64,000 bases of DNA from Marsupella aquatica (lineage: Eukaryota; Plantae; Marchantiophyta). Made by a program: the position numbers and the translations under genes. Location: contig OZ316895.1 in assembly GCA_973895155.1 (NCBI GenBank), forward strand, positions 2,591,659-2,655,658, written 5' to 3'. The notes under the pieces are model-generated. The model did not search any database, was not told the DNA's origin, and was given only the letters and a program-made list of their open reading frames with translations. Below are positions 15,501-55,522 of the stretch, in pieces (within the stretch, counting starts at the first letter, position 1; every line of letters begins with the position of its first letter).

Positions 15501-15517
15501 CGCTATTGATAGATAAC

Positions 15518-20599: not shown

Positions 20600-23305
20600 A
20601 TGAAAGAAATCCGTCTACATGGGAAAGGCGCCCTTTCTACTGTACTGAGCTCGGGTGGTGAATTGGCTGAAAATGTGGAATCGCCATACAACCATGCTTT
20701 GACTCTCTCATGGAAGGAGTTGTTCTACACTGCTTCGTCGCTCGACAAGCACTTGAGAGTTCCCAAATTCCTCAGCTCATCAGCGTTGAACTATAAACCT
20801 CGAGCGGGATCTAGCACTCACGCGGACAGGAACGGTGGTACAGTAATGGCGGAGATGAGAGATCCAGAGATGCGAGATCCAGAGGTGAGGTTCGATAGAT
20901 CGTCGGAAACAGTTGACAAGTCAGATCGAGATGGCCAGGTAAAGGTTCAACATACTATTAATCCCTCTTCTTATCCCGGGGAGCCTGACGTTACAACGAG
21001 ACTCGCTGAGGCCAATTTTCAGCTGGCCATCTATATTGCAATGGCACATGCGGGATTGGCACTGGTGGTGTTGGTCATGTATGGATTAGGTCGACTCCTG
21101 AAGGACTTCTGGAAGCCAATTCAATGGGCTGTGCTGTGCTCTATGCCTCTACGTGAGGTGCAAGAAGCTTTGGTCACGTTCTGGAAGGAACCACTGCGGA
21201 AGGGGCTCGTGGAAACAGTAGTTGCTGCACCAATTGCTCTGTACAAGGTCTTGCTGGGCACGTTACTAGACGCGCGGGAGGGAGTGTTAAGATTTGTGGG
21301 AAAGGGGCACAGTTTTGGCCACCCAAGACCTGTGGGTTTCGCCAAGCTGTTCCAGTGGTTGGTTTCATTTGGCTTCTTTACTCTGGGTCTAGACGTTTTG
21401 GGCCCGGCCAATCTCTCTCTCGTTGCATTTGCTGGGCTTCTCATGTACGCTGCAGGAACTGGATTCGAAGTCTCGCAACTCACCACTGCCTTCTCTCAAA
21501 ATGGTAGGCTGCATCGTGACGACGGCAAATTGAGGTGGGTTAGCTGGGTCATGGGGCCCATTACTCGAGCTTCGAGGTCTGCTAATCAGCAAATTTCTCG
21601 TTCCCTGATCAGCAGTCTTCACACGCTGGTGGCGATAGGGTTGATCACCACTATGATTCTGGGATCTTTGGGAGGATTGGCACTCTTCTCCTATAAAGTG
21701 GGTATGGAAGGAAAACACGCAGTGGTATTGATCAAGGTGCATCTGGAGGAGAACGACTATGCGGAGGTGGTGGGATTCAACAGGTGGGTGCAGGACAACA
21801 GAGTGCCCGAGCTGATCGATACGTATGTCGGCAAGGGGTATGAGGCGCTGGTGGAGCAGGTCGATGCATTTGCGGCGAAGAATAATCTCACAGATGTTGT
21901 GGATGTTGGAAAAGAGCTTCTCATGGGATTTGTCAGAGGGGATAGAAACGGCCATATGAATAAGACGGAAGATGACCAGGAGAACCCGCTGGTGCGAAGG
22001 CTTCGTGACTTGCAGTGTAAGGTGAACGAATTTGATTTCCAGGGAATTATTGCGGAGGTCGAGGCCACGTTCCTTCTTTTCCTGGAGCATTTCCAGATGA
22101 AGAGAGAGGATGTCCTGGAAAAAGTGAAGCAGGTGGCACAGAGGTCTACAGATGTTGGAAAGAGGGTTCTTAGCAGTGGCACGAACATGGTGACCAGCGG
22201 GGCATCTATGTTCTTCTTCGTGTCCAGTGCTATCGCATCTGGTGCTGCAGAGCTGTTCAACTTTGTAACTCAGTCTCTGATCTTCTTCTCAGTCCTGTAC
22301 TATCTCATCACGTCAAAGACTGGGGGTGTTATGGAACAACTTCTGGAGATGGTGCCTCTCTCGGAAGACACAAGGCGAGGTTGTGCGCATGTTCTTGATC
22401 ATGCCGTCAGCAGCGTCCTTCTAGCAACGGTCAAGACTGCATTCTTCCAGGCTTCTTTTACATGGCTGTTGTTACGATTCTGCGGTATACATTTCCTGTA
22501 TGGGTCTACGATGCTCGCTCTGGTGCAGGCATTCCTTCCTTTGTTTCCTAGCTGGCTCGCAAGTATACCGCTGGCAGTAGAGTTTGCTCTCAATTGGCAT
22601 TACATCGGAGCAATTTTGCTCTTCGGTATCCATGTCTGGGTGATGGATTACGGAATGGAGAAAATTCACAGCGAAATTCCTGGCCACAATGCTTATCTCA
22701 CTGGCCTCAGTATTGCTGGGGGAATGGCTCTCTTCACACCTGCTCTGGAGGTAAGTCGCTGGTGCTTCAAAATCGAAATCTGTCTGTACCACCGCTCTAT
22801 TCTGCACTTTTATTTGTCTTTGACCTACAAATACAAGAGGATGTTCTTGTTATCTTGCTGACCAAAACTCACCAGGAAGGCTCTGATAAATAACTGACCT
22901 GCGAATTTCGTAATATTGCCCTGTCTTTTCTCTTCTTGATATGCCTTCCATAGCCCTGTTCACTTCAATGAGTAAGAATTCTTGTTCCTTGAGTGGCACG
23001 ACTTCCGAATGCAAGGATTACTCACGTCAGGGGTTTTTCTGTTTAATAAACAGGGTCCGGCCATAGTAGGATTTCTTCCTTATAACTAATAGGAATCAGA
23101 GGTGTGCAACGAAGAACAACCAATATTTGCTCGTCATTTCTGATGCTTGGATCTGATCTTATCATTGATGTGATTGCAGGGCGCAATTATGGGTCCATTG
23201 CTCATGACAGTTCTCATAGCTGTAAAGAACTTGTATGCTGAGTTCGTATTGAGCGCGGAGACGGCTGTTGAAAGTCACGAGCACTCTGGCCCCAACAGCA
23301 AATAG
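20600..23305 (+). CDS. TMEM245-like / AI-2E transporter family membrane protein, 2 exons (20600-22750, 23180-23305); start may be 20600 or ~20846
   Basis: Multiple hydrophobic helices; plant TMEM245-type motifs LAIYIAMAHAGL, PIQWAVLCSMPLR and IPGHNAYLTGLSIAGGM. Donor gag|gtaagt at 22751 and acceptor tgcag|ggc at 23179 give the in-frame end ALE|GAIMGPLLMTVLIAVKNLYAEFVL..*. Confidence 0.9.
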
Positions 23306-28427: not shown

Positions 28428-29288
28428 GCGCCAAGTGACCAGCCCGCCCCGAGAAAGTGTAGGGTAACCCATTCCCAAGGGTCTCGGTAACTCCACATCA
28501 CATATACGATACACCCCTGCAAACAGAGATAACCCTAGTTTTTTTTTTTTCAATCAATGAATGCAGCCACATTTTGATATGTGAATACCATGTGTGATTA
28601 CCAGCAGGGCATTCCCAAGGGTGGTAATGGCTACCCGAAGAAGTGTAGTGTAGTGCCAGATGACACCTGGCAGCAAGGCCAATTGAGTAATTTTTGTTGG
28701 GTGTAAAAGTTTTTGAGCCATGTGCAGAAGGTTAGGCCACGCTTAATATTTTTTGACGCTGCTATAATATGGCGACTACACCTTTCAGGGTTTTGTATTA
28801 CCCAGATCTGTTGTGTATTTAATGTACATTCACAAGGTGCATCATTTGTGTTATGTAGATTTTGAATTCAATTCAACACCCTTCTTGATGTTTGTAATTT
28901 TTGCCATCCTAGAGCTCTTCTTCCCTCTCATTTTACATTTTAATATTGTCCATTAGCAAATTCTATCACTTGAGAGATATGTTCATTTCTTCTAATGAGT
29001 GATAGAAAGAAATGGTTCAAATTTGTAAACCGTGTGTATAGTTTCTTTTCATGATTTGTTTCCTAAGTTTATTGTTTTGATAGATTTGAGTGTTGTTATC
29101 TAAGGCAAGTGAGTATCTATATCTTATGCACACAAATCTTTGGTACCTTTGTACCACATACTTGTACTTTTCCATGTTATTATGTGGATTTTTGGTTTTT
29201 GCATATGTTGTACTTCTACTCTTGCATTTTATCACACTAAATCTTAACAAATGTTATGCTATAGCCAAAAACAAATTAGATCACCTAT

Positions 29289-29322
29289 AACACAGTGACG
29301 ACCAAATGAGAAGTGTGACCAC
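29289..29322 (+). repeat. Left terminal inverted repeat
   Basis: ~34 bp matching the reverse complement of 41954-41988 with 1 indel and 2 mismatches. Confidence 0.9.
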
Positions 29323-29439
29323 ACTTCTCGTTTTGCCCGCGGCGAAAAAAGTTTCTAAGGCAAAAAAGTCTTGGATACGGAATTAGTATTCCCACTAAAA
29401 ACTAGTTTTTCAAATTGAAAAAATGGGAAAAATCGACAC

Positions 29440-30185
29440 GAATACGAAGATGGGATACGGCGTATCCCATTTCGGATCCAACCGCGGAATTCCAAAAACA
29501 AAAAAACAAAATGCAGTAAAAGTGCCGATATTGGTTTACCCGACAAGAATATTCCAAAACAATTCTTCTCAACGGTAACATTTAACCGACTGCGATGCAA
29601 TTGCAGTCAAATACTAACCACGGTCAGTGAGAAAACTATAAATAGGAGATCACCGCTTGAGAATTTTACGCTCATTTTTTCTCATTCTGTATACTCTTAC
29701 TCTCGACGAATGCATACCGTCTATACAAACTCGTATTCCCCGAAAATCAGTTTTGACGAACAGGTGAGAATCTTCCTGAAAATGGCGAGGACGAATCCCA
29801 AATGGGATACGGCGTATCCCAAACCGTATCCCGTTTGGGATTCAACCCTCAAATTTCAAGTTTTTATTTCACATTAGCTAAAAAAGGAGGTTGGATGCGA
29901 AGTGGGATACCCAACCTCCGAATATGAAGTATCGTAGACTCCAAATGTCAAAACCTCAACGTTGAATGCGAAATGGGATACAGCGTATCCCGTTTGGGAT
30001 TCACTCTTCAAATGTCCAGTTTGATTTATCTTTAGCTAAAAAAGGAGGTTGGATGCGAAGTGGGATACGGGGTATCCCATGTCGCATCCAACCTGCGAAA
30101 ATGAAGCATCTTAGACTCCAAATGTCAAAACCTCAACGTTGAATGCGAAATGGGATACGGCGTATCCCGTTTGGGATTCACTCTT
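29440..30185. repeat. Left subterminal cluster of ~40-bp palindromes, including a ~177-bp tandem duplication
   Basis: gaat(g/a)cgaa(a/g)tgggatac-nnn-gtatccc..t(c/g)g..ttc at ~29441, 29793, 29963, 30051 and 30140; half site at ~29892. Confidence 0.9.
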
Positions 30186-30871
30186 CAAATATCCAGTTTT
30201 GATTGCCCATGTGGTATTTACCTAGAGTTTAAACCTTATGGATTACTGATTGTTTCGCAGGCGAAGTTCAACTGAACTGTACGCACTGAAGCTCTTGCTG
30301 CCTTTCAGTGACCGACACCCACTCAAGCTTAAGCTTTTCTTGAAAAACGAAGTTTTCTCTTGTGAGTCTAATGGCGGTCCAAATCAAAACCTTGAGAAAC
30401 ATGCTCGTCGATTGTATAAGCGATTAGTTGCACTCAAAGTTCTTCGTCCTGGATTAGGCGCGCTATGGACGGGAGGCGTGGATCCACATGATAGTTTGAA
30501 TCCACTCCGAATAGAGTTTTGTGAAAAAAATGAGGACGAAGTTCCAATTCGGTCGAGGATATGTTTGAGTGGTTGTCTGCACTCTGTTAATTCCTCTTGT
30601 AACTATTGTCGTGATGCCAAAACAAATATCATCGATTGGCATATTTTTGTTGTCGGATTTGGAACGAAGATCCTTGGGTTAACTTATCGCGTTGAATTTT
30701 CTTGATTAGTGTGTAAGTGTTTAGGTGAACGTTCTTGGGTCAAACATTTTGTGAATATATTTTTCTTTTGATCAAAGAAATAAAATCAGTTTTTCCATCA
30801 CTGTTTTGTAGGTTGCTGAGAAAGAGCTCACCATCTCATTAATTACTCCAGGTATCCACTCTTATTTTGGA

Positions 30872-31424
30872 ATGGCAGTCACTAAGAACCCTGTCTTTAC
30901 AAGGTTAGCGATGTCATTCGACAAAGAGAAGAAACAAATTCAACAAAAAAGTGGCCAAAGGGAATCCGGATTGCTTTTGGATGGACTTCCTGACGAGATT
31001 GTTGAAACGTTCATTTGGCCCATTTTGAAAGTTTGTTGTATAGAGGATGAGTTTGATTCCTCCAAGAACCAAGCTGATGAAAGATTGATGCGATTAAAAA
31101 CCATGGTGTGGCTTGGATGCACCTCCAAGAAATGGAACCAGCTCGTAATTTGTACACGAGTCTGGGGGTATTCTTAGACTAGCAAAAAGCCAGCTTGAGG
31201 AAGTAAATGAAATGCTGACAAGCATTCCCGATAGAAAACCCCTTCAGAATGTTTATATTGAAGCTTTTGTTAGGATGGAAACACCAAATCTTCCTCCAAT
31301 TGATTTCTTAGGTTTATTTTGAAGGTCTTACCTAAATCGATTTCAAGAAGACTGGCACAATCTTGAGAAAGATGAGCAAGCGAGGCTCTTGGAAATGTAT
31401 GGGGAAGCTTCTAGTCTGGTTTAG
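30872..31424 (+). pseudogene. F-box-like cargo gene, frameshifted
   Basis: LLDGLPDEIVETFIWPIL..LGCTSKKWNQLV resembles an F-box. After a frameshift near 31165 another frame reads GILRLAKSQLEEVNEML..F*RSYLNRFQEDWHNL.. Confidence 0.55.
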
Positions 31425-31899
31425 AGCCATCTTGAATGGGCTCTTTGTAAAGACTCTTTTTAAGAATATCAACTTAGTTTATTTTGTGGCACAATTCCGA
31501 ATGAATAAAGAGTTTTGTGATTACCCTAGCATCAACCCGATTCGCTACGCGTAAAATCTATTTGGTTGAATACAAGGACTTGGGGATATGCCTTATCTCT
31601 AGTCCCATCAAGAGAAAAAAGTATACATAGACATCCGGACTCCAACCCTACGCTTTTGGATACACATTATCGCCTGTGGAAACCTTATCGCCAGTGGATA
31701 CGAAGGTGATAAAGTATAAATAGGAGTGCCTGGTCAAAAAAATTACTCTCATTTCTTTTTCTTCTCAACTTTATTTGCCTCCGCGTTTTTCTTGGGCCGT
31801 AACATCTCTATAGCTTTTCGTATTTGCTCGAATCGAAACCAAAAAATAGGTAAAAACTGAAGAAACTCTCCCCTCCTCGTTTGGTTAATTGTTGAATCC

Positions 31900-32340
31900 T
31901 GAGAGGGATATGCCGTATCCCCCTTTGTATTCAACTCTATTATTTGGCCTTCTTTTCAATGTTGAATGCGAGATGGGATACCCTCTTTTTAGTCTTCCAT
32001 CCGAACCTCCTCGCTCTTTCTTGACTTTGAATATGAACTGGGATACCGTGTATCCCATTTCGCATTCAACTCCCTCTTTTTCGTGCTTTGCATCAGACTC
32101 GAGGCAATTGTTGAGGTTGGATGCAAAGTGTGATACCGCGTATCCCATTTCGCATTCAAGTCCCTCTTTTTTGTTAATTGCATCAGACTCTGGACATTTG
32201 TTGTTGTTGGATGCGAAGTGGGATACCGCGTATCCCATTTCGCATTCAACTCCCTCTTTTTTGTTCTTTGCATTAGACTTGGCAATTGTTGATGTTGGAT
32301 GCGAAGTGGGATACCGCGTATCCCATCTCGCATTCAACTA
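31900..32340. repeat. Palindrome array (~88-90 bp period, 5-6 copies), probably in the 5'-UTR intron of the cargo gene
   Basis: gttggatgcgaagtgggataccgcgtatcccatttcgcattcaac-type units at ~32030, 32116, 32206 and 32294. Acceptor ttttcag| at 32377 lies just before ATG 32382. Confidence 0.9.
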
Positions 32341-32381
32341 CTTTTGGTCTGGTTCTAAGTGTGTCAATCTTTTTCAGGATC

Positions 32382-35300
32382 ATGTCGAACAAATCAAAGT
32401 CGTCTGGTTTGACCCAGTCTTCACGAACATGCATCGTTGATGAGATTTGGAAGAAAGACCTTTACACGGAGGAGAAACTCGTGAGGAATAGGTGGTACTT
32501 CAGGGATGCTCGGGCGATGGATATTCACAGAGCCTATGAAGGTCCAGCGATGTGGTTGGTTAAAGTTAAGGGTAAAGACCATTGCCATTATGGATTAGTC
32601 ATGGACACCGGGGAGGCGGATATCACCGACTCAAAAACAAAATAGCTAAAGAAGATTCCAATGTACCTTTGCATTCTTCCAAACAATGCCTTCACTGTAG
32701 TTGTCCTCAACTACGAGAAACTGATCGGGTCTCGATGAACACATTTCCTGATGACCCAATCTGCCAGCTAATTTTGGAAGTGCCGGAGATTGAGGACTTT
32801 TCTTATTGGTGTTTGAAATTTGTCTTGAAGTCTTGGAGGGTTGTTGAGGATTTTACGAAGGTAGCGTATAGGTCCGTTGTTGGAGCCGACTTTGGCGTCA
32901 AAGAGCGGCCTTTGAAGTTGAAAGTGACGAAGCCTACCGATCCGGCTTCGAAGTCAGGGGAGATGTCTGGAACACCCTCGACAAAGGAGAAATCTGCCAC
33001 AGTTTCTTTTAAGGAACCGGCAAAGAGGAAGCTTGCAGATCAACTCTCCGGGGAAGGTTCTAAAGTAGCGGTGTCAGGAGAAGCTATTGTCAAGAAGAAA
33101 TTGGATTGACGTGACATCCAGAAGCACGCACCTTCTGCACCAGGAAGTGTTGTCTCATCTTTGGTCCCACCAATTTCACAGACACCTTCTCAGATTCCTT
33201 CAACTTTGTCAAGTGGGCCTTCTTTATCATCTAGGGGAGCTGTTAAAGAAAAGAAAAACGATTCAACAGATATCACCACAGCTTTGCAGCGGGAAGAGAC
33301 ACTTGTGGTTCGTGAAGAAGTGTCTCGGTTGATGGAGACTAAGCGAGTTCAGAAGACAACAGTTGTTCTGAAAACAACTAACCTGCTTCTTGTTGACGAT
33401 ATTGACGATGAGAACTCAACGTTGGTTCGAACAGTCGATCGGTTGCATGTGGAGAACATCAAGACTTTGATGAAAATGAATCCGATAAATTTCACGATGC
33501 CATTTGTCTTGTTTGTGATCCCCAAAGACTGCCCGACAGTGACAGACTGGGACCCAGAAAAGGCAACAAGCTGGAGATATCGAGTGATTGGAGGTAATCA
33601 CGGTGCTCGGGCTAAGAGAGAATTGTATCAGGCTTATGGGAGAGAGATCTTCAATGAACTCCAAGCTTGGATGTATGCTGGTCTCACAAGGGAGGACATT
33701 CAAAAACTTAGCATCCAACATAATATTGATCAGGAGTACAGGAAAAAAATGAACAACATTGATCAAATCCGAACAACGCATAAGATTTTCCTTGCCAGAG
33801 GAATGGCAAAAACCAAGGAGACTAGAGAAGCGTGTGCGATGGAGGTTTGCCTCGACGGGTTTTTTTCGGGGGATGCCACAAGCCTGAAGAAGCATGAGCC
33901 TCTCTTCCAAATTGCGTTTAGGTCAGGTAAGGTCTGGGAACTCCAAGACCAGATCTTTGAGATGTGGAACAAGTTGGAGATCAAAGGGCAGAATAAGCAG
34001 AAGTCACCGATCAAGAAACTCAAGAAAGGAAAGGGAAAAGCGCAGTCGATTCCAAAAGCTTTGAATAAGCTTGCAGGGGGCCTTACCTTGACACCTTGGA
34101 GAGCAATCCAGGGAATTGAACACGACCAATTTTTTGAGTCCCTTCTTCTCCGAGTGAAGGACCGGATGATCTCTTTGGAGCAGATGGCAAAAGAAGCCGA
34201 GAGTTACAAGAAACTTGTGAAAATCAGCAAGCTTTTTGTTCAGTTGTCAGGGCAGCCAGACTGGGCGACTTGCAAACGAATGTTTCCGAAAGAAACAGAA
34301 TCTGCCGAGCTTGAAAGATGGAGTGGGAAATTGTCCGATGTGGTATGTTCTCCCCTTCCACTAATTGGACTTTTCTATTTGTTTTGCCATGTTCGGAGGT
34401 TTTCTTCGTGGATTTCTTGTTGGATGCGAAGTGGGATACGGGGTATCCCATCTCGGATTCACTTGTGCTTATTTGATGTTGGTGATATTTCAATGCAGTT
34501 TTTTCTTGGTTGAATGCGAAGTGGGATACGCGGTATCCCATCTCGTATTCACTTGTGGTTATTTGACGTTTGTGATGTTTCAATGTGGTTTTTGCTTGGT
34601 TGAATTTGAAGTGGGATATGCGGTATCCCATCTCGTATTCAATGTGGTTATTTGACGTTTGTGATATTTCAATGTGGTTTTTGCTTGGTCGAATGCGAAG
34701 TGGGATACGGGGTATCCCATCTCGGATTCACTTGTGGTTATTTGACGGTGGTGATGTTTGACTGTGGTTTTTGCTTGGTTGAATACGAACTAGGATACGG
34801 AGTATCCCATGTCGCATTCGTCGTCCAGATTTGATTGTTTGAATTCCTAAATGGTTATCTCCCCATTGTCTTTCCTCCAGATTCTTTTAACAAGTTTGCG
34901 TTTGCAGTTGAAAGCTTTTTCGAAGAAGAAGAACAAGGATGCAATTGGTGCCGATGCGGTTGAGAAGCCTACGGAGGAGCTGACTTCGAGTGTTATTCCC
35001 CCAGGGTTTAAGAATTACGTTCAAGAAGCGATTGAGAACTACAACCGTCGTCGTGGGATTGAAACGGTTGAAGTAGAGTCGAGTGACCATCGATGGAAAA
35101 ATGCTGATGGAAATTTTATCAGATATACATTGCATTGTGGAGATGTCAGGGCGCTGGATAAGTTTGTAGAGAAAAGGAATTACACACTTGCAATTGCAGA
35201 CATTCCTTATGGATTCAATGCGCCTGGCTCTGAAAATGATGAGGTCCCATTTTCAGAGAGTGATATTGTGGATCATATGGTAAATTGTTTTGCCAAGGTG

Positions 35301-37042
35301 ACAAGTTCAAAGATGTGGAGGTTTGTTGTGATTCACTCTTTGCAACAAACTTGGTCTGTGATGAATGCTCTTGGAAAAACTTGTAACACAGGTGTAGAGG
35401 CTGGAATTTGGGAGAAGACAAATGTACATGCTCATCCTTCCGGGAATCGATTGGCTTGGGCTTTTGAAAACTGGTCAATCGGATATTATCACGAGAGTGG
35501 TATTAGGACCAGAGACATGTATAATTTTGAACATGATGAGAAAAGGGTAAACATCATAAAAGTCCCTTGTGTTACAAAAAATGTGTAACACCATTGGGAG
35601 AAATAGTGAACCCTTACCAGAAACCGATAGCTCTAGCAGATTGGTTCGTTCAACATTTTAGTGAAGCAGGGGATTGGGTTGCTGATTTATGTGCGGGGAG
35701 TGGTTCGACCTCATGCGTTGCCTTGTTAGGGAAACGTCCGGTGATAGCCGTGGAGCTCAGTGCAAGCTAGGTGGATTGTATCCGGACCCGACTTGTCACG
35801 CTTGATGAATCGTGGGACTTGAATGATGAAGCAACCGAGGAGGGTACAGGACCCATGAGCTTTGAGGTTCAACCACCTATTGGTGGTACTACGAGCACCC
35901 TCACCACTGGAACTTGCATTATTACAACCGCGGAGGAGAACGATAATGATGAGGATGAAGAGGATGAAGTGGAACATGAAGCTCCGGCACTTGATCTTGG
36001 CTCATTCCTTGAGGTGTAAACTTAAGTTTGATTAGTTCTCTCATGTTGTATCTATTGATCCAAATTTGTGAAATATTGAGGAAGATTATGATTGGACTAT
36101 GTTCTTATTTCACAAAGTAATATCTTTGCAGGAACCAAAGGAGGATTTTGTATTGAAACATGTTTTGCATAGATTCTCACACAATCCTTCTAGTGGATTT
36201 CTTTTGGACAATAAAACATTGAGCCAACTTAAACCCAGTCAATATTTGGGTGATGAAATAATGGAATTTTACCCACAATTAATAACCGAGGAACATGAAG
36301 ATCTGGCTCCCTCGATAAACACATTATCCTTTTTTTTTACCCTTGGCTTGTTTCAAGGATTGAAACAGAACCAGCTGAGACCTTGTTGGAATCAATTCAA
36401 AAGATGCAGAATTATTACAAGCCACCATTTTCCCAAATTGAGGTCATTCTCATGCCAATTCACATGAGCATGCACTGGAGTCTGGTTGTAATATGTTTGG
36501 ATCGGATTGAATCTTCGGTCAAAATGTATCATCTAGACTCTCTCGCCAGTCTACACTCAACCCATGTAATTGGATCAATACTGAGCAGGTACGTATATAT
36601 TATATTACATTTTTTCAATTTGAATTTATTTATGTGGTACATAAATATAAACACTTTGGACTAAGAACTTTGAATGATAATTTGCAGATATTTTACAATG
36701 GAATGGGAATTATTTTTTGGAAAAGTTCCAATTGGAGTTGTGGAGATATACAATCAAATGGTAAGGATTTGAAAAGTTATTTCAACTTTTATTTAGTTCA
36801 ATTATTAAACACTTTGGAGTAACTTTAAGATTCTTTCTCAGGTACCCCAACAACCAAACAATTCACATTGTGGTCTATTTGTTCTTCAAAATATGGACGA
36901 AATCATAATTCAATGGCATATTACACAATGCCTTGATGCACAGTCTTTATTTACTGAAAAATGGTACAATTGTAAAAGAGCATGTAACCTTAGAAAATTC
37001 ATTCGAGATCAAATTCTAAAATTGATGCATGTACCTGTTTAA
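32382..37042 (+). pseudogene. ParB-like domain + beta-class N6A/N4C DNA methyltransferase + Ulp1/C48 SUMO protease fusion gene, 5 exons, disrupted
   Basis: Exons 32382-34342, 34881-36013, 36132-36588, 36688-36760 and 36842-37042 join in phase at GT..AG. Motifs: YRVIGGNHGARA (ParB/Srx-like); LHCGDV..IADIPYG (motif IV); NPYQKPIAL..SEAGDWVADLCAGSGSTS..VIAVE (motif I); LKPSQYLGDEIMEFY, MPIHMSMHWSLVVI, HLDSL, VPQQPNNSHCGLFVL (Ulp1 H-D-Q-C). Lesions: in-frame stops at 33107 and 35768; frameshifts near 32640, 35578 and 36335-36385. Confidence 0.85.
34420..34820. repeat. Palindrome array, 5 copies at ~90-bp period, inside intron 34343-34880
   Basis: gaatgcgaagtgggatacg(g/c)(g/a)gtatcccatctcg(g/t)attc-type units at 34421, 34511, 34601, 34690 and 34780. 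Confidence 0.92.
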
Positions 37043-37053
37043 GGACATCAATC

Positions 37054-40000
37054 TCAATCCTCTGAGTGTGCAGAACCTCTCTCTAATATAGCAGACTCTA
37101 TAATTTTTTTTAGTTTTTGCTGCTATTTGATTAGTACTTAAAAGCGCAAAGTTGTATGCATACACCGCTGTTGATGATAGAACTAGTTCATCTTGGAGAA
37201 GTCGATTAGATATATTATCTTTCTCTGGAAAATATTTCCCATCAATAGCAGACTCAGCACTTGCTTCAGTTGTGTACCATGTGATTTTGATTCTCTCAGG
37301 AATGTCTGCAGTTCTTGTCAAAATCTTTGACATCTTTGCCATCCAAAACAACTTGCCTTCTAGATCCTTGTGTGCCGCTACACATATCATGGACCACTTA
37401 TTGTTAACTTCCATATCTCTGAAATCTCCAAATTCAGCTTGCTTTCGTCGAGGTCCGGAGTAGATAATTCTCTGTGGTCCAGCAACTTTGTCAACCAAAG
37501 TTGGATCAACACCTTCTTCAACAAGTTCATTTCTCACCCTTGGAAGTAGTTGTGCACCTTGATTTTGTTGCGGCCAAACCCACTCAAATAACCACTCACC
37601 TTCCTCTAGGTGGTTTTTGATAATATCTTTTTGTTTCTCAAAAAAACTCATCCACCAAAGTTTATCTTCATTGTCAAAGTAATTGAAACCTTCCTGGATA
37701 GCTTTTTCATATTTCACCAGAGTAGTTAATGCACCATCTGTATTGGAAGAAACATGGACATCATCCCTCTCAACACCTTTTGCTGACTTCAATGACATTT
37801 ATGCAGCAACCCACATTCTTGAAGTTGGAATGTAATTGACAAACGTCACTGCATCTCCCCAATCCTGGGTCGTGGAAAGATGTTTCCCGTGAAATGTTGT
37901 CTCTTCGTTTTCATCCTCCATGACTCGTTTGAATCTGAATTGCCTTTGAAGTTATGAGATTGAGATCTCTCAAGACTCTACCTGAGACTCCCTTCTCATT
38001 TGGCTGGTCGTTTTCATTGAGAAATTTTTGAAAATCGGCTACTTCATCCACAAATATGATCAAAGCTTCAGGTGAATATGCTCGTCGAATAATATCTTCA
38101 AGAGTCTCCAAGCGAAATGCTTTGTGCTTGTTTAACCTAGACAACAATTTACTAAACATCTGATCTATCTGGTCATGTGTATGACCGACCAACAAGAAAC
38201 CCACTTTAATCTTGTCAAAGATCTTCAAATCTACTAACATGTGAAGCTAACCCATCAAGAATTTATTCTTGTTTTCCCGAGTGGTATTATCTAATTGAAG
38301 ATATAACACTCTTGGTAATGTCCCATCCCATGTATTCAATACATTTTGAATAACATGTATGGTCAAGTTTGCATCATTATGGATATTGGGATATGTCAAA
38401 AATACTTTTGCTACAAGGTTCCTGTCGAAGATGAGACAACCTACAACATGTATTGGAATGAAATACTTTTCATCCATGTTCTTTGGACAACGAAGAAAAT
38501 GTGGTAGCTCTGTTTTCTTTTGATCCATACCATCTATACAAATACCCAAATACTTGTTGGGCTCATCATAGCATTTTTTACGATGCTTGGCTAACTTCAT
38601 CATTTCCAATGATTGTACTTTTCGATGCTCCATAAGGGCATTGATATACTTTCCTGAAATGATACAATAGCAATGAATTAAAAATCAATAACTAAGGATA
38701 AACTTTGACAAATATTGAATTACATGTCATCAAATTAAAGTTGAAGGTTATAGTTAGTGGAACTTACTTTTATCCTCTTCAGTTGTTGCTTTGTCCCGAA
38801 GAGCCTTGAATTCAGTACAAGGACCACAAGTAGAAAATCAACTCCTTTTAGGAATTCGTACATTTGGAAACTTTTTTTTCCAAACATGCAAAAAATAAGA
38901 ATATGTAACTTGTTGTTCTTCTCGCAACATTGTTTCAGCTTCAAAGATTCCATGTATCTCTTGCTTTGTCCAATTGTCTGACAAGTGATGAATCTCTTTA
39001 TGGGGAAGACTATCCATATTTTTTTGGAAAAAATCTTTCAACCATTCCACCAACTTTAGAAATGAAGGTGAGTCTTCCTTACAAAAGGTATCTCGTTCAA
39101 TCCTTGTAAACATGTTTGCATGGATTGTTGCCAATCTATTATTACCTAAAGAATATAGTTTCTTGAATCCTCCTCTACATATAGGTTGTCCATTTACACT
39201 ATCTCCACGAGAAGTACTACAGTTGTTCATGATACAACCTCGTAGCAAAATATTTTTTTGAAAGTGTTTAAGACCAAAATAATACTTGTGTTGTTTTGAG
39301 CATTCCTCTAGACCCAGAGACCTCAAGCAAAACTTGTCACAATAGGGATACTTAAAAATATCTTTAATTTTGCGTTTTTTTAGATTTGCAATGGTAAGTC
39401 TATCTTTTCTAATCATCTAATCTCTGATTTTCTTGTTGGGTCTTGTCACCTCTACTCTATCCTGAATAGTGTCAGGAGAACTTACCCCCCCACTATTTTC
39501 TAGTGAATTAGAATTTAAAACAAAAAGATCTTCTGTATAGTTGTTTCCACTCTCCACATTTTCTGTAACTGTTTCATGAACAATCTCACATCCCAGGATC
39601 TCTTCAACAACATTTGAGATTACAACAGTCTCTCTGTCATTTGCAGCCTCCTCTGATCTCTCTTCAGAGTCTTCTGAAAATGTAATAGGTGTTCGGAGAT
39701 TTCTAGTTTGAAATCTTCTAATGATATTCACATCTTCAGTCGGAGTACCGCCCACTTGTCTCTGAGACTATAATCCCAACCTAGGTGATTCTTCTCGACT
39801 TGAGGGCTCATCTTGACCATTGAATAATTTTTGGACAAGTTTCAATTTAGCATGTACCCTTGAATTTTCGGGCCCTCTCTCCGACAGCTCACTTCGCAAT
39901 AATCTCCGAGGAATTTTTTGGACACTAGATCTCTTCCCTCTTTCGTTCTGCACTTGCCGTCCAATGGAAGATCCAAAAACCTCACACTGCATCCTCGCCA

Positions 40001-40901
40001 AAGGGCTTCGAAGTCCCATGTTGTTAGTTTTACCACTCGGTGAAATAACTGATGGGAATACTGATTGGGATCCATGGATCCCAACTCGTATTCGTCCTTC
40101 GGGACTTCGAAGTGAAAAATTTCCCACTTGCTGTTCTGCGTCATGACTTGGTAATTTTCCATTGCGCAATACAAACTGGGATCCGCGTATCCCATTTTGC
40201 ATTCCACCATCGGAACTCGGGTTGGAAGTCCGCAAGACCGGTGACTCGGGCACAGGATTCTACAAAATACCACGAGGGAATACTAAGTGGGATCCATGGA
40301 TCCCACTTCGTATTTGACCCAAGGAATTTGGTACTGAAGGAGACGAAATAGGCAATTCGCGTTCACCGTTTCTCAACATTCGAGTAGGGAATACCAAGTT
40401 TGGCTCCAAGGCTGCCCCTCCCTGCAATTCTGGCAAATTTTGACTCCTCATTCGCTCAAACTGTGATTGAACACTGGACACAGCTATCTTCACTCCCAAA
40501 GAACGAGACATTGGAAAAACCAACGGAGATCTTCGGGCGGGCCTACATGGTAACGTTGTTCTTGGCATTAAAAACCGGGGCCTTCGCCTTTGAAGATCTG
40601 TCGGGGTTCGCGATGAACCAAGTGTCTATGTCGTAGGAACTACATTAGGCTTCTTTACAAGTAGACGTCGTTTAAGAGGTTTACTTGGAGAGACATAGTA
40701 TGAAATCGGAGCACCCACAACACTCCTACAAGACTCTGAATCAGACTCTGATTTCTCAGATTCTGAGGAAAATGAAATCTCTGGCACTACTCTCTGTGAG
40801 GCTGGTAATTCATTCATCAAACGAGATGGAATAAATTTTTGAACAACATCTGGCAAAGATGCATTTGAACTGTAAATTGACTCATCACTTGAAGACGCCA
40901 T
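37054..40901 (-). pseudogene. Sola-like (DUF7869-type) DDD/E transposase, 2 exons (intron 38654-38767), disrupted
   Basis: One frame runs from ATG 40901 to the donor at 38767, broken only by in-frame stops. Motifs: CDKFC; VWKKKFPNVRIPKRS*FSTCGPC; CIDGMDQKKTELPHF; LYLQLDNTTRENKN; FLLVGHTHDQIDQMFS. The phase-1 intron restores EEDKR-KYINALMEHRK. Confidence 0.85.
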
Positions 40902-41279
40902 AGAGAATCAAACAAGGGTTGTATAGGAGTACGTATTCGTATCCAACAGAGAAAATTCAGATTACAGTATTCTATGAAAACAACTACTCAATACTGAATG
41001 AACCTCAAAGTAATCGCGAGAAATGAAGATGAAAAACAGATGCGAGCTCTTCCTTTTATAGTTTTCGGGGGCATTGGACACGTGGCATTCCCTGATTGGT
41101 CCGTACGAGGGTTTTTTCACGTGAGAGTTTGTCTTTTCAAAGAATGCTGAAATTTAAATTGTAGATTTTTGAGGAAGTCGCCATGGATCTTAGTTGGTCT
41201 TCAAACTGGAATATCAAGGTATGCGATGCAAAAACTTCAAAATGTAGAGGTTATCCTCTTATTTTCCCGATCAGTTTTT

Positions 41280-41875
41280 GGACTTGCGAAAAAAATGGGA
41301 TCCATGGATCTCAGTTGGTATTCATGTTGAAAGATCTCCTGATGCAAAGTTGCAAGTGGAAAACATTGAGGTTGAATACGATAGTGGATACTTGGATCCC
41401 ATCTCGTATTCATCATGCGTTATGGGCTAAAAAATTTCCGGACATGTCGTCGGGTTAACTTAACTAACTGTGTGGTTCAACTGTAGTCCGCGGTCAGTTT
41501 TTCGCAGTTTTCAATTTTACCGCAGTTAAAAATTCAAACATTTTTAACCTGAGGTTACATGGAAGCGTCAAGAGAATGATTTGGTGTGGTTTTCGTCCAT
41601 GTTCAATAGTTGAATCTGAAATGGGATACGCCGTATCCCATTTTCAGTTTGCCATTTTGATGGCGAAAATGAAATCTTGTGTTTTACTCGTTTTGTTTGA
41701 CGCTCAGATTTAGCTTTTAGAAGGATCACGTGATGAGCATTGTTTTTCCAGGTTTTGGAATTTGCACTTTTTTTAGATGAAGTGTATCAGAATTCTGGAT
41801 TGTGACAATTCTGTGTTTTTGCGTCGACAGTATCTCGATTTGAAATCCGATGTTGGATGCGATTTTGGATTCATC
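41280..41875. repeat. Right subterminal palindromes
   Basis: tgggatccatggatctc ~41297; gaatacgatagtggatacttggatcccatctcgtattc ~41374; ctgaaatgggatacgccgtatcccattttcag ~41616. Confidence 0.8.
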
Positions 41876-41953
41876 CTCAAAATAGCGTTTTTGATCTTAA
41901 TTTTAGTGATTTTTTGCTGTTTTTCGCGAAATTGAAAACACACTTCTCGTTTG

Positions 41954-41988
41954 GTGGTCATACTTCTCGTTTGGTCCGTCACTGTGTT
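41954..41988 (-). repeat. Right terminal inverted repeat
   Basis: gtggtcatacttctcgtttggtccgtcactgtgtt, followed by the TSD ctat. Confidence 0.9.
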
Positions 41989-43841
41989 CTATGCATCACT
42001 ACAAGACCAAAAATGGAATGTTTTAGGATGAGCATGCTATATTGAAGAGCACATTTGGTTGAGCTTTAAAAAACAGACTTTCCGGGCATTTTGCAATGGG
42101 GTAGGAAAACCCAAAATATACTCTGCATGATTGTGGGTATGCTCTAGAGACTGAAAATGTTGGGATTCATGGTAACCTATTGTCATATTGCTTATTGACA
42201 AAAATCACAAGGCAGCCAATGCAGCAACAAGTAGACAATGTTGAGGAAAACCAGTGATATACACACATGAGAGACAAGCAAGAAGCTCATACACCAACAC
42301 ACAAGATACGTGGTTCGCCGTCGTCAAGGCTATGTCCACAGAATACTAGAGCTTTACTAAACTTTGGCAACCACGTCACACTAACCCTCCAAGTACAAGC
42401 CCCCCTTAGCACTAAACTTGCTCCTCCAAGAATGAGCAAGAGTCTCCATGAGGACTAACTCCTTGCTCCCCTATATGCTAGGCACACTAGTCACAACTAA
42501 TCATCATTAAGTCCCTAATGCCAATTAGTCTAAGAGGTTAATTGCGACTCAAGAGTTAGCCCGAACAGACAATTACACAGCCTGATGAGTCTGCAGAGGA
42601 GCAAAGTCAGCACTTCATGAGCTCAGATGTGTGCCACACGATTGTTAGCACTAAAACCAGAAACAGACATGTTGCACGATAGCAGTTAAAATCTAATTTG
42701 GCAGTGGTGATTTTTCATCGAAATCATATCCATTCCTAGCTTGGCACGGGTGTATTTATTTATATTCAACCACACAGTTGCATGGCATGGTTTCCCCCAA
42801 CGCTATGTAAATATTTATTGGTTCATACATAAATGTCATTACCTACAGTAGGGTGGTAGCCAAGTGGGGCTTGGGCGACAAGCTGTGGCCAATAGAGGGC
42901 TTGAGTCTAAGAGTGTCTATCTAATGTCTCCCTAAAAAACTTTGCTGCAGCTATCGAATTTTCTGGCAGTGCTTTATGGTACAGTGTCCCACCCTAAATG
43001 CAACCCTGGGGTTCCCGGAATTTGGGCTTAGGGAGTACTTGAAAGTCTCAAGAAGTGAAATTTAATGGCTAACTGCAATAATCAGTAAATGCACACATTA
43101 CTTAAAGTTTTGCAATTCCTATGATTCCATTTTTTTTGGCACTTTTCAATTAGTGCAAGGATTGTACTAAAATTATAGCAACAAGTGAACTTAGAATCAA
43201 GCCATGCAAATCCATAGTAAGAAAGAACTAATGGCCCCCCCTTGAGAGTTGCCAAAATGTGCAAAGTTTCTGTTGCCAATGCATGAGAATACCCAGGTGG
43301 CAAATCTTTCATTTTGAGAGAATCTGTGAGAAAGTAATGAACCCGCCTATGTGCATCCTACTAGCGGGGGCAGTTGGGGCCCACCTTTCAAGTCCAAAAG
43401 AGCATCAGCAAAAGGTGGTGGTGCTGTAAGTATATACTAAACCCTTGTGTACAGGGCATTGTGGGTTGGAATGCCTTGAGGGGTTATTATTTCCCAAAGT
43501 GCTCTCGTGACAGGACCTTAATACACTTCAGCCTTAGGTTTCATTTTACTAAGTTTAGTTAAAGTAAGAAAAACTATCACAATGACTCCAAATGAAAGTG
43601 GAATATACACACTTTTTATAGAAATGGACCAAACAGAGTACAAAAGAACAAACAAAAGAGGGTCCAAGTGGACAAAACCAATCGTAAAAGAAGTGAGCAA
43701 AAGGGAACCCCTAAACACCAAGAAAGAGGAACTAAAAATAAGAAATGAGCAATAGGGAACCCCTAGAAACCAAGAAAGAGGAACTAAAACTAACCCAAAC
43801 GGACCGAGGTCCTCATAATTCCTAGCAAATGTGGCAAAAAG

Positions 43842-45340
43842 CTAATGGTCCACATCAAGTGTCAAAACTAGATCGGCAAGTGGGATTGGAACATCCTCTA
43901 GGGGAGCTAGCGGCTGTGGAGGCACACTAGCACCCACTGTAAGAGATCGACGATAGATGGCCTGAGCTTGAGCACGCTGTAAGATGCCTGAAATGCGTTG
44001 GCGAAAGTGCATGGTCAAAACAGATAGCGGGGGTCCAGTGGGACCCATTCGGCCATGAACATCCTGGGCAGCTTGCCGAAGAAGCCCATCAAACTGAGGA
44101 TGAAGACGCCCGAATAGCTCCAGAGCAAGGGGGAGGAAGCTGTCTGATGAAGCTTGTGCAACATATTTGGCCTCCTTCGTTGTTGCCGCACGTGACGCTG
44201 CTGCCCTTGCCGTTGTTGCCGCTGTCCCAATGATGTCTTGGCGCATGGGTTTGCCACCATTACATCTGCCAAAGTACGTTGACCCTCATGGACCATGGTA
44301 AGATCCACCCATAACTGCTGTGATGGAGGACCAGGTAACTCGAGTACCACCTCCCCCCACACACATACCAAAGAGCCAGAGAGAACTTGAGCAGTTGCAT
44401 CTTGCACAACGTCGTGAACAATAATGGTTTCACCTCCCAAACTGCACCGAAGAAGATGGACACGTGTGGCATCACAAGGCTTCCCACAAGTGCAAGAAGT
44501 GGGTGGGGCAGCCCCATACAAAGACGCATGGCTGTGGAGAACTCCACTGAAGACATCCGCAAATGATGAATGACTGGATTGGCCTGAAGCCATCCTCCTA
44601 TGCCCTTCCCTCCGGATGAAAGAATCCAAGCTCGGTCCATGTTAGGTGCCTCGGAGAGGATGCTGGAAAGGGTGAAAGCGTGCATATGCCTAGTGAGGTC
44701 TGCCTGAAGACGGACGGGATCCAAAGATAAAAACTCCTGAAAAGAAGGTAACGCAGCGCAAACGGGATCTGGTAAAGATGACCGCACCGTGCGCAAATGA
44801 ACCTGAAACGGGAGGGAACCCTCCTCTACCTCCATGAGAGATGAAAGTAAATTAAAAAGGGCGATCCTCAGTAAGGAAACGATCGGCCAACAATGAGAAG
44901 GCGGCCGCCCACGTGCCCAAAAAGGCCAAAGGTGCAAGGTTCTCAATGGAAGTAAGCCCCAAACCATCCTGAGAAATAGGAAGACCGAGTTGTCGATGAA
45001 GCCATAGAGATGAGAGCAATGTCCCCAGCCCTAAAAGAGAGGCCAAAGTCTCACAAATGGAGACATCAAATGCTCGAAGGTGGAGACAAAGATCCTCGGT
45101 AGGGGGATGCGTCCTAGCCAGATAAGACGCACGAGGGTGGATGCACCTCAACAACATCCCAAATGCTGCCTAAGAATCAGCTAACTTAGGGAGCATAGGA
45201 GTAGGGGCTAAGGCAGCTTGTAAAGCATCAGCAATGAAAGATGAGCAAAAGGAGGCGGTATCGACTGGGGAGCCAAGGACCCGAAGACCATCGGTTGAAC
45301 GTAAGAACCCTGGGGGAAGCGCAAGATCAAATCTTGACTG
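43842..45340 (-). mobile_element. 5'-truncated, frameshifted RLE-type non-LTR retrotransposon (CRE-like)
   Basis: Post-RT motifs LRVLGSPV, LPISQDGLGL and WLQANP..FSTAMRLCMGLP; zinc knuckle CTCG..HLLRC..HD; restriction-like endonuclease D..ADV..K..KY..FLPLALELFGRL; C-terminal RISGILQRAQAQAI. Confidence 0.85.
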
Positions 45341-53800: not shown

Positions 53801-55522
53801 CAGTGTCACAAAGTGTAAAGCCTCTATTACCTTTAGCCTAGATTCTACCTGTAAATTCCATTACCTGTAGTATAAATCTAGGCTACAGGTAGTGTAAAAG
53901 AAAAAGTATTCACCTTTTCAGTGAAAATTCACTACACATTTTTTCTTAAATTAGCCAGTTACCAGCGAGTCACAACATCCAGAATCTCATGATTATCCTT
54001 AAATCTAGGATCTAAGACTCATACATTAGTCAATGGAAATACATAAAGTAATATTCTTAGACATTAGAAATTACCTCTGTACAGACTCCAGACCACACTC
54101 AACGGGGTGAGAGAATGTTCCCTGCCTGGCGACTCGGAGAAAGACTCATCTACTTATTACTGTAGTGTGCCCTGCTTCCATGGAAATAACTGAGTAGCCA
54201 AGAAGGGTAAATAAAGAGGACGGGACAAGGACGAGCGTAATTGCATCCGTAGTTATTGCGTGGCCGATGAATGGGTGGGTCCGGGCGCGAAAGCAACACG
54301 GGAGCGATGGTGGAAAATTGATGAGAACTAAAGAAGAAAACATGCAGAATGATTAGCTGCGGGCGAGCGTGCTGCAATTGACATAGGGTAATAAAGAACT
54401 CCCTGCAGGTTTGGATCAGAGGGAGGATATCGATTGCTCGACGATTTGCCTGCGCTTGACCAGCGATTACATAGCGAGAAGAAGTCGAGGAGCAGCGGAG
54501 CAGAAGAAGAGGTGATAAGTAGAAGAGTGTAGTTCATTAGAGGATTGAGCAGCAAACGGAGTTAACAATGGGATTGGTTTGGAGGTTTGGACGTGCCCAG
54601 GCCTTGACGGGAGACATTTTCACAATCTAAACAATTATGGACGAATATGAATGAACGTCTGTCTGTTTCGCCGAGGTTGGACTCAACTCTTGAAGATTCT
54701 ATCTGGGTTGATAGCTTGCTGGCTGCATTATTGGATGATCTGTGTCATGCTGGAAAGGGTTACCGAATCAATCCCTGCGGCGGCTGTAATTGTCAAGTAC
54801 TTGCTTCATCATTGATTGATTGCCAATAAGGGCTGGCGATGATCATCCTCGTCAATGTGGAACGACTCCCAGTGCAATTCTGTTAGGCATGAGACTATGA
54901 GGCTCACAGTGTATCGTTTATTTGCGGAATAGTCTGCCCGTGAAGCTCTTCCTCTTCTGATGTTGCTGGTGAGAGTCTTCTCGATTTCACTCAAAAGTTT
55001 GGTCACTTCTGCCTCTAGTGTATTCCGGCAACCATTCGTCAGCTGCAAAGGGGATTTTTGGATTTTCGGAATTACCGGGTACAGCGTGCGAGTTCACGTG
55101 TTTGACGCCCTTTGATCAGTGGGGTTCTGCCGTCTGAGATTTCTCTAAAGATTTTCGTGAGTTCTTGAACTGCAATTTCAATGTTCTTTACGAGTGTCTC
55201 TCTGTATGTGCAGTTTCTTAGGATAGTCGGATGACCTGGACTTCTGGAGTTGTAGAGGGATGTATGGAGTCTGTTGCGACCTGTTTGTCGATGTATGGTG
55301 AGATTCACATGTGTGAAGATTTTATTCAAGTTACCAAAGATCACATGGGTTGGGCTCTTTTGCAGAGAGATGAGAGAGTTTGCCTGGTCTAGGCATTTTA
55401 AGAGGTCGAACTTTCTCAAATTGGCAGAGGCTTTACACTACCTGTAGCCTAGATTGAGAATATGGACGACATCTCGGTGGTATTATAGGGCGGCCAAGAA
55501 TGTGTTAAGCGAGTGGATCAAG

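Follow-up and report, generated by a model that had tools for sequence, protein, structure and literature searches.

A Sola-like DNA transposon of the liverwort Marsupella aquatica carries a ParB-methylase gene with adjoining Ulp1 protease exons

Why would a liverwort carry a gene that combines a ParB-like fold, a DNA amino-methyltransferase of prokaryotic type and a Ulp1 SUMO protease? The question is raised by a stretch of 64,000 nucleotides from Marsupella aquatica (assembly GCA_973895155.1, contig OZ316895.1, positions 2,591,659 to 2,655,658 of the forward strand; referred to here as the window), in which a preliminary description had read such a gene at positions 32382-37042. What had been missed is where this gene lies: it is carried as cargo by a 12.7-kb (12,700-bp) Sola-like cut-and-paste DNA transposon (29289-41988), recognizable by its terminal repeats, and the stops and frameshifts of the gene reveal a dead copy. 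As to function, we propose, with slightly better than even confidence, that the intact protein binds palindromic repeats of its own element, methylates DNA, removes SUMO and keeps the element genes expressed against silencing by 5-methylcytosine (5mC). These results extend to land plants a design that was published for algae in 2025.

The element has terminal inverted repeats of about 35 bp, the left one with an AACAC terminus at 29289-29322 on the forward strand and the right one at 41954-41988 on the reverse strand, which are identical in 32 of 35 columns and are flanked by a duplication of the target CTAT (29285-29288 and 41989-41992). Terminal inverted repeats with a 4-bp target duplication are a feature of Sola elements. 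The transposase gene, which is broken in this copy, lies on the reverse strand at 37016-40901, convergent with the cargo gene, and contains two Pfam matches to DUF7869 (E-values of 4.8e-21 and 5.6e-18), which may be a Sola-type transposase domain. The CTAT target departs from the preference of Sola1 elements for AWWT (PMC3845634), but this is one site only and, according to the available part of PMC12477816, the Sola1-1_Ec32 element of Ectocarpus departs from it too, so that the point is a weak one. Since the gene lies between transposon ends, a domesticated host gene like DN4MT1 of Marchantia is rejected. The right end at 41988, to which the read support for the element ends refers, and the existence of many insertion sites are confirmed by contigs from public sequencing runs (13 in run X1 and 9 in run X3) that continue from this end into differing flanks. 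A junction between the right end at 41988 and the transposase interior at 37214, seen on a contig in runs X2 and X4, suggests that one copy of the element was inserted into another. High-depth interior contigs reach 12.8-19 times (X1) and 13-19 times (X2) the depth of the junction contig of this copy, from which we estimate a family of roughly 13-19 near-identical copies, depth not being the same as copy number. These ratios are based on high-depth long contigs, which make up 6 of 7 interior rows for run X1, 5 of 7 for X2 and 2 of 7 for X4; lower-depth, more diverged contigs were dropped and X3 has no junction row.

The gene itself, on the forward strand, can be read as five coding exons. Exon 1 (32382-34342) contains an N-terminal domain, a low-complexity linker and the ParB fold with a helical, helix-turn-helix (HTH) part; exon 2 (34881-36013) contains the methylase and an acidic tail; and the Ulp1 protease is spread over three exons (36132-36588, 36688-36760 and 36842-37042). 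It had been stated that four GT-AG introns join all domains in phase over about 1270 amino acids. The introns (34343-34880, 36014-36131, 36589-36687 and 36761-36841, with phases 0, 0, 2 and 0) and a span of 1275 codons could be reproduced, but the open frame could not, as it is obtained only when an X is placed at each of three one-base frameshifts and three in-frame stops are read through. The frameshifts are located near 32721, near 35578, between methylase motifs IV and I, and near 36329 inside Ulp1, and the stops at 32643 and 33107 in exon 1 and at 35768 in exon 2; when spliced literally, the sequence has its first stop at codon 88 and 64 stops in total. In four DNA-like public runs, other copies, making up part of the depth, carry one extra base at all three frameshifts, and a related contig end has a sense codon at 35768, the one of the three stops that is covered among the rows listed. 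Because the frame is broken here and the missing bases are present in other copies, we regard the gene in the window as a pseudogene and consider it very likely that its family has intact members. For the transposase gene, five of seven checked stops and two frameshifts are absent from the family majority among the rows listed. Intron 1 is bridged by the homologue P0020 in a single alignment (amino acids 338-961, E-value of 1.6e-69), and a phase-0 GT donor is found at the same position in three relatives from metagenomes (L001-L003). The N-terminal domain, of about 200 amino acids (32382-32990 in the window, 625-1185 in L001 and 1086-1664 in L005), is conserved with 24-28% identity in L001 and L005, where it seems to form an exon of its own, with a repeat-bearing intron after it; it has no match in Pfam.

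The methylase is more strongly conserved than the ParB part. Its motif-I piece matches N6_N4_Mtase of Pfam (E-value of 5.4e-8), and the motifs follow one another in the order IV (DIPY at 35199, amino acid 761), PYQKP (35612, amino acid 899) and I (DLCAGSGST at 35684, amino acid 923), which is the beta-class order already recognized in the preliminary description; a profile of the family aligns both numbered motifs to M.RsrI and M.MboIIA. Aspartate is the first residue of motif IV in all 22 rows that have letters there (24 rows aligned), 13 of these 22 read D-x-P-Y and three have the canonical DPPY. Plant members keep D-x-P-Y, QKP, GxG and an acidic motif II, and motif IV is also kept in the three of three metagenome relatives in which that exon is present. 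In the comparison with L001-L003, the methylase core is 58-80% identical at the protein level, whereas identity at four-fold sites is 19-31% and thus near random, and we therefore conclude that the methylase has been under purifying selection. Among solved enzymes, the family profile ranks M.RsrI first (8e-13), followed by M.MboIIA, CcrM and DpnA (to 4e-11), compared with 5.5e-5 for an N4CMT-type enzyme and 0.009 for M.PvuII, which act on N4 of cytosine. By its motif order the enzyme is a beta-class methylase, and by its profile it is closest to N6-adenine enzymes, which favours N6-methyladenine (6mA) as its product and agrees with the earlier leaning toward adenine. The enzyme is not a member of the group of eukaryotic N4-methylcytosine (4mC) writers formed by DN4MT1 of Marchantia and N4CMT of bdelloids, since no SPPY is found. 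In the parts of the respective papers that were available, these are 4mC-writing enzymes encoded by host genes and bearing (T)SPPY (10.1101/2021.02.12.428880, PMC8885841); they resemble the present methylase as prokaryotic-type amino-methyltransferases in eukaryotes, and N4CMT also in being permuted (beta), but no ParB part is named for them there, while the present enzyme is D-x-P-Y-bearing, ParB-fused and transposon-borne.

The ParB part (33326-34342) was assigned by its predicted structure. Its own sequence in the window has no match in the profile libraries of Pfam, PHROGs and NCBIfam, and sequence searches of the PDB with this piece or its profile gave no matches. A search of 1.84 billion representative sequences yielded 159 relatives with an E-value of at most 0.001, and a model built from 129 aligned rows reached a mean predicted local distance difference test score of 92.7 (an earlier single-sequence fold, with 36.6, was not used). 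In a Foldseek search, this model had 12 matches in the PDB with an E-value of at most 0.001, of which all those listed are ParB or Noc (best E-value 6.4e-6), with alignments of about 283 columns against targets of 190-213 amino acids, followed by KorB, Spo0J and sulfiredoxin. Viral matches to this part are mostly named ParB as well. The model thus supports a ParB/sulfiredoxin fold with a helical DNA-binding part, in agreement with the ParB-like N-terminal region proposed before. By fold, chromosomal ParB and Noc proteins are the closest systems, and the identity to solved ParB proteins is 10-13%.

Where does this combination come from? Of the 150 ParB-part homologues listed, 19 also match the methylase part, and a Pfam scan of 56 of them found N6_N4_Mtase in 11. 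Among 30 clusters, 18 are named, from Chara braunii (5), Riccia sorocarpa (5), Adiantum nelumboides (3), Ginkgo (1) and marine invertebrates (4); the ParB-methylase fusion occurs in all of these groups. In a tree of 28 rows, which left out P0157, had no prokaryotic outgroup and has open deep forks, and which we used for host-lineage grouping only, the homologues group by eukaryotic host lineage on long branches, and the 30 phage matches listed are 22-32% identical. Because of this grouping and the low identity to phage proteins, the gene belongs to a eukaryotic family that is old and ultimately prokaryotic in origin; of the earlier idea of a phage- or bacteria-derived module, the ancestry holds and a fresh capture from a phage does not. 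The idea that the stretch was recently acquired from a prophage or a bacterium, or is contamination, deserves next to no credence. Both folds are prokaryotic in type, but spliceosomal introns at a conserved position, eukaryotic transposon ends and the many insertion sites, together with the host-lineage grouping and the distance from phages, contradict this origin. Iyer et al. list ParB-linked eukaryotic methylases and state that few of them occur in land plants (PMC4738411).

Nothing was found when single pieces were used to scan viral contigs and, at first, metagenomes, nor did word-index searches with the ParB or methylase piece give any match among longer proteins. A later metagenome scan identified five loci (L001-L005) that are 45-52% identical over the ParB part. 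Besides the phase-0 intron 1, L001-L003, the three loci that extend far enough, have an open methylase exon, 54-56% identical to that in the window, with DVPY or DIPY, PYQKP and GxG; L002 and L003 in addition show a convergent transposase end. Their ParB exons are damaged in L001 (one stop) and L003 (one frameshift). Among the other homologues, some carry a Tudor-like (weak match) or SAM domain (the P0064 cluster, from four species of Haliotis, and P0031). The abalone protein, of 543-548 amino acids and found in one 90% cluster across the four species, may have been domesticated. In Chara braunii, P0006 has two tandem ParB-methylase units in one model of 1825 amino acids, which may be a merged gene model.

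A possible target for such a protein is found within the element. A 39-bp hairpin-forming palindrome with the core GGGATAC-N3-GTATCCC occurs 16 times in the element and not once in the other 51 kb of the window; a looser second repeat pattern also matched at five places outside the element, and only clustered matches were counted. The first array (29441-30183) covers the left subterminal region and the predicted first intron (29764-30260) of a further cargo gene, gene A, and the second (31894-32339) lies between a TATA box at 31715 and a splice acceptor at 32377 that immediately precedes the start codon (ATG) of the ParB-methylase gene. Five repeats are located in intron 1 (34343-34880), where L001-L003 have arrays as well, and a group at 40056-41654, mostly with the variant core GGGATCC-N2-GGATCCC, lies in and before the transposase gene with its TATA box at 41060, around the transposase start. 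Identical 12-base TATA boxes, TATAAATAGGAG, stand at 29637 and 31715, ahead of gene A and the ParB-methylase gene, and downstream of each box a first intron rich in palindromes is predicted. Four of the five metagenome relatives have arrays of their own in matching places (L004 has none), with the core GCGAGAC-N2-GTCTCGC in L001, L003 and L005 and CCGAT-N6-ATCGG in L002. The tetranucleotide GAAT is found 11-8 bases outside the core in 22/32, 22/38, 12/16, 3/6 and 11/40 half-sites and is the consensus in each set; it is thus kept across three core types, although units within one family are not independent. From this pattern, the family-specific inner core of 16-17 bp, to be compared with the 16-bp palindrome of dimeric CTP-clamp ParB proteins, is a candidate for the ParB site and the outer GAAT, kept across families, a candidate for the methylation target.

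In the mechanism that we propose, the ParB/HTH part would likely bind the palindromes of its own element, and the beta-class methylase would likely write 6mA on or beside them, perhaps in GAAT. The Ulp1 domain, which is likely spliced onto the protein, would strip chromatin proteins in the vicinity of their SUMO. By analogy with the VANC/KIU system of Arabidopsis, the outcome would probably be that the promoters of the element remain usable under 5mC silencing by the host. The protein might instead serve the mechanics of transposition or self-restraint, with ParB gathering the ends or partitioning copies, hemimethylation timing transposition to replication, or the promoters being repressed. 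Some repeats are subterminal (29452 and 41623), repressors such as KorB belong to the ParB family and are among the fold matches, and there is a precedent in Dam, which controls bacterial insertion sequence elements. Most repeats, however, are located at a distance from the element ends, in introns or directly downstream of TATA boxes, as are VANC targets according to the available parts of PMC5735166 and PMC13317346, and we consider a role of this kind rather unlikely.

Several observations weigh against the proposed mechanism, and some of them lead to other explanations. The C-to-T changes private to this copy fall in CG or CHG in 26 of 39 cases, compared with 27% expected (P of 4e-7; displayed rows, a selected subset). 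This excess is the mark of host 5mC and, as evidence of host pressure on the element, speaks for the mechanism; but as the copy still carries such a deamination signature, any protection is incomplete. The CTP-binding arginine patch of CTP-clamp ParB proteins has the form GxxRxxA. In the window the corresponding site reads GGNHGARA (GGNH at 33590, amino acid 404) and in the family GGxH with no conserved arginine, while R35, H92 and N133 remain conserved; the structure model thus describes a ParB-fold protein that departs from CTP-clamp and chromosomal ParB/Noc proteins in this feature. In motif IV of the methylase, isoleucine replaces the first proline, in which the enzyme differs from M.RsrI, M.MboIIA and CcrM, its best solved relatives by profile, and four animal-clade rows lack the aromatic residue (DMPQ, DMPK and DVPN), which is also lost in some plant copies, so that some family members may be inactive. 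The catalytic motifs are kept in plant members and not throughout the family. One might speculate that the methylase has lost its catalytic activity and that its fold acts as a second DNA-binding module only, for which these substitutions speak. We regard this as very unlikely given the motifs that are kept in plants, the three rows with DPPY and the stronger conservation of the methylase than of the ParB part. Finally, among the phage matches listed, the annotation of the top one by E-value (2e-8) is that of an N4-cytosine methylase. If the enzyme wrote 4mC, this mark would occupy cytosines and block host 5mC. The Pfam family spans both chemistries, the repeat cores are CG-rich and the available part of the Ectocarpus paper leaves the base open (PMC12477816), but with an aspartate and not the serine of (T)SPPY in all 22 rows, and N6-adenine enzymes first in the profile ranking, 4mC is an unlikely product.

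The weakest link of the proposed mechanism is the fusion to Ulp1. The protease itself is well recognizable. Its exons match Peptidase_C48 of Pfam (E-value of 2.8e-9), and the catalytic residues that had been reported could all be located, with the histidine in HWSL (36473, amino acid 1147), the aspartate in LDSL (36533, amino acid 1167) and the glutamine and cysteine in QPNNSHCG (36851, amino acid 1213), making up the H-D-C triad and oxyanion glutamine of C48 proteases. The nearest solved structure is SENP2 (E-value of 0.0026), SENP2/Ulp1-like matches having weak E-values. In the family majority, the Ulp1 frame is open and the last motif is the canonical QxNxxDCG (DCG seen at position 36866). 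The methylase tail, intron 2 and the Ulp1 exons are found together on a contig of 945 bp and high depth from run X1, and Ulp1 is thus fixed beside the methylase exon in this element family. L001-L003, however, stop directly after the acidic tail, where intron 2 (36014-36131) begins in the window, and because they end there without Ulp1, the protease is a later gain of this lineage. Intron 2 has no homologue support comparable to that of intron 1, and none of the other three donors is as weak as its GAG|GTGTAA. Without splicing, a stop follows two codons on and the protein ends as in the relatives. None of the 150 ParB-part homologues listed has an Ulp1 match, although many of them are fragments cut at introns, and Pfam C48 was found in none of the 56 scanned. 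A word-index search with alignment, restricted to proteins of 1674-4780 amino acids, returned P0006 alone and says little on other Ulp1 fusions.

The real protein could therefore be a ParB-methylase that ends just after 36013, with the Ulp1 exons as a captured passenger that is expressed separately, occasionally spliced on, or joined to ParB by skipping of the methylase exon, which is conceivable because introns 1 and 2 are both of phase 0. This possibility, which is compatible with the rest of the mechanism, we keep as a tentative one. The relatives, which have repeats in the place of Ulp1, and the weak donor speak for it, as does an in-frame ATG inside the predicted intron 2 (open reading frame 36072-36467). 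Against it, the roughly 110 bases between the stop and exon 3 have a GC content of 29% and a good, frame-keeping acceptor, TTTGCAG, and the Ulp1 frame and canonical DCG are kept by the family majority. We consider it rather likely that Ulp1 is spliced onto the ParB-methylase; the fusion originally described is plausible, but depends on a weak donor at the place where three relatives stop.

How does the proposed anti-silencing gene compare with known systems? A ParB-like plus N4C/N6A methylase protein in a Sola1 element is known already from Ectocarpus. As described in the available part of the paper, Sola1-1_Ec32 is 21.5 kb long, has AACCG ends and a 4-bp duplication, and encodes a 1104-amino-acid ParB-like and N4C/N6A methylase protein opposite the transposase; self-binding and self-modification of the element were proposed, and similar proteins are cited for green and red algae (PMC12477816). 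The Marsupella element resembles it, by description, in being large and Sola-like, in its duplication, its ends starting with AAC (AACAC here) and an accessory gene with both parts in one open reading frame opposite the transposase, a layout also seen in L002 and L003. It differs in its land-plant host, the C-terminal Ulp1 exons and the palindrome arrays, the word palindrome being absent from the main text of PMC12477816 as available. In Bostrychia, Plavaka elements carry PAG2 and PAG3, ParB-like and PF01555 methylase cargo with inverted-repeat arrays, for which self-binding and self-modification were likewise proposed (bioRxiv 10.1101/2025.02.11.637652). In the portion of that preprint available to us, tandem inverted repeats lie beside the ParB gene and the best structural relative is the Myxococcus ParB 7BNR, as here; unlike here, these EnSpm/Plavaka genes are a separate ParB-2-oxoglutarate oxygenase and methylase-SET gene, and the main text has no Ulp1.

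The closest functional analogue might be VANC of the Arabidopsis VANDAL elements, which are Mutator-like elements. VANC binds tandem motifs in the introns of its own VANDAL element, and some VANC genes, of the Kaonashi (KIU) type, carry an Ulp1 of unknown role, according to the available parts of PMC5735166 and PMC13317346. Shared with the present system are a transposon-encoded factor, family-specific tandem motifs in introns and upstream regions, and Ulp1 in some members; the transposon superfamily is a different one, and here a ParB fold for DNA is combined with a methylase. A Pfam scan of the gene pieces, which is not a direct comparison, found no homology to VANC or KIU. By analogy, the ParB-methylase gene may thus work like VANC/KIU and be built like the Ectocarpus accessory gene. 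Three features appear to be new: members of the family in land plants that retain the catalytic motifs, palindrome arrays with a family-specific core of 16-17 bp but a constant outer GAAT, and an Ulp1 domain that L001-L003 lack. In the literature covered, which excluded most subscription papers, no report was found of a ParB-methylase transposon gene in land plants or of one with Ulp1. The strongest form of the proposal, which we put forward as a possibility and with some doubt, is that a land-plant transposon carries its own 6mA writer, in which ParB reads the family palindrome and the methylase marks GAAT, with a SUMO eraser added, so that the VANC-Ulp1 (KIU) design was reached independently from prokaryotic parts.

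Transposon-borne ParB-methylases have so far been a proposal in algae, going by the accessible parts of these sources. The present family is suited for testing it, with open methylase exons in L001-L003, motifs under selection, arrays with three cores, and enzyme and site that can be swapped. If active, the methylase would be a transposon-encoded source of 6mA or 4mC in land plants. Alongside VANC there would then be another anti-silencing system, unrelated to it, that likewise acquired Ulp1 late. Should the protein prove to write 6mA on its own element and to erase SUMO as well, it would amount to a defined source of plant 6mA and a self-addressed epigenetic counter-defence, and a repeat-programmable DNA marker functioning in plant chromatin might be used as a tool.

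Two further cargo genes lie on the forward strand of the element. The main exon of gene A (30261-30705) has no match in Pfam, PHROGs or NCBIfam and no usable match in a structural search of the Atlas. Gene B (30863-31460) is broken and has no Pfam match; judged by eye only, its start is F-box-like. Outside the element, inverted arms of 52 nucleotides, 92% complementary and with inner arms, at 6927-7191 resemble a miniature inverted-repeat transposable element, and broken open reading frames on the reverse strand at 43842-45030 have, on visual inspection, the appearance of the terminal part of a retroelement without long terminal repeats, the piece scanned having no Pfam match. Host genes identified with Pfam, which together with the 5mC signature indicate a land plant and are all on the forward strand, encode a Q-rich RING protein (15416-18346), an AI-2E-type membrane protein (20600-22861) and an F-box-Kelch protein (55448-56992).

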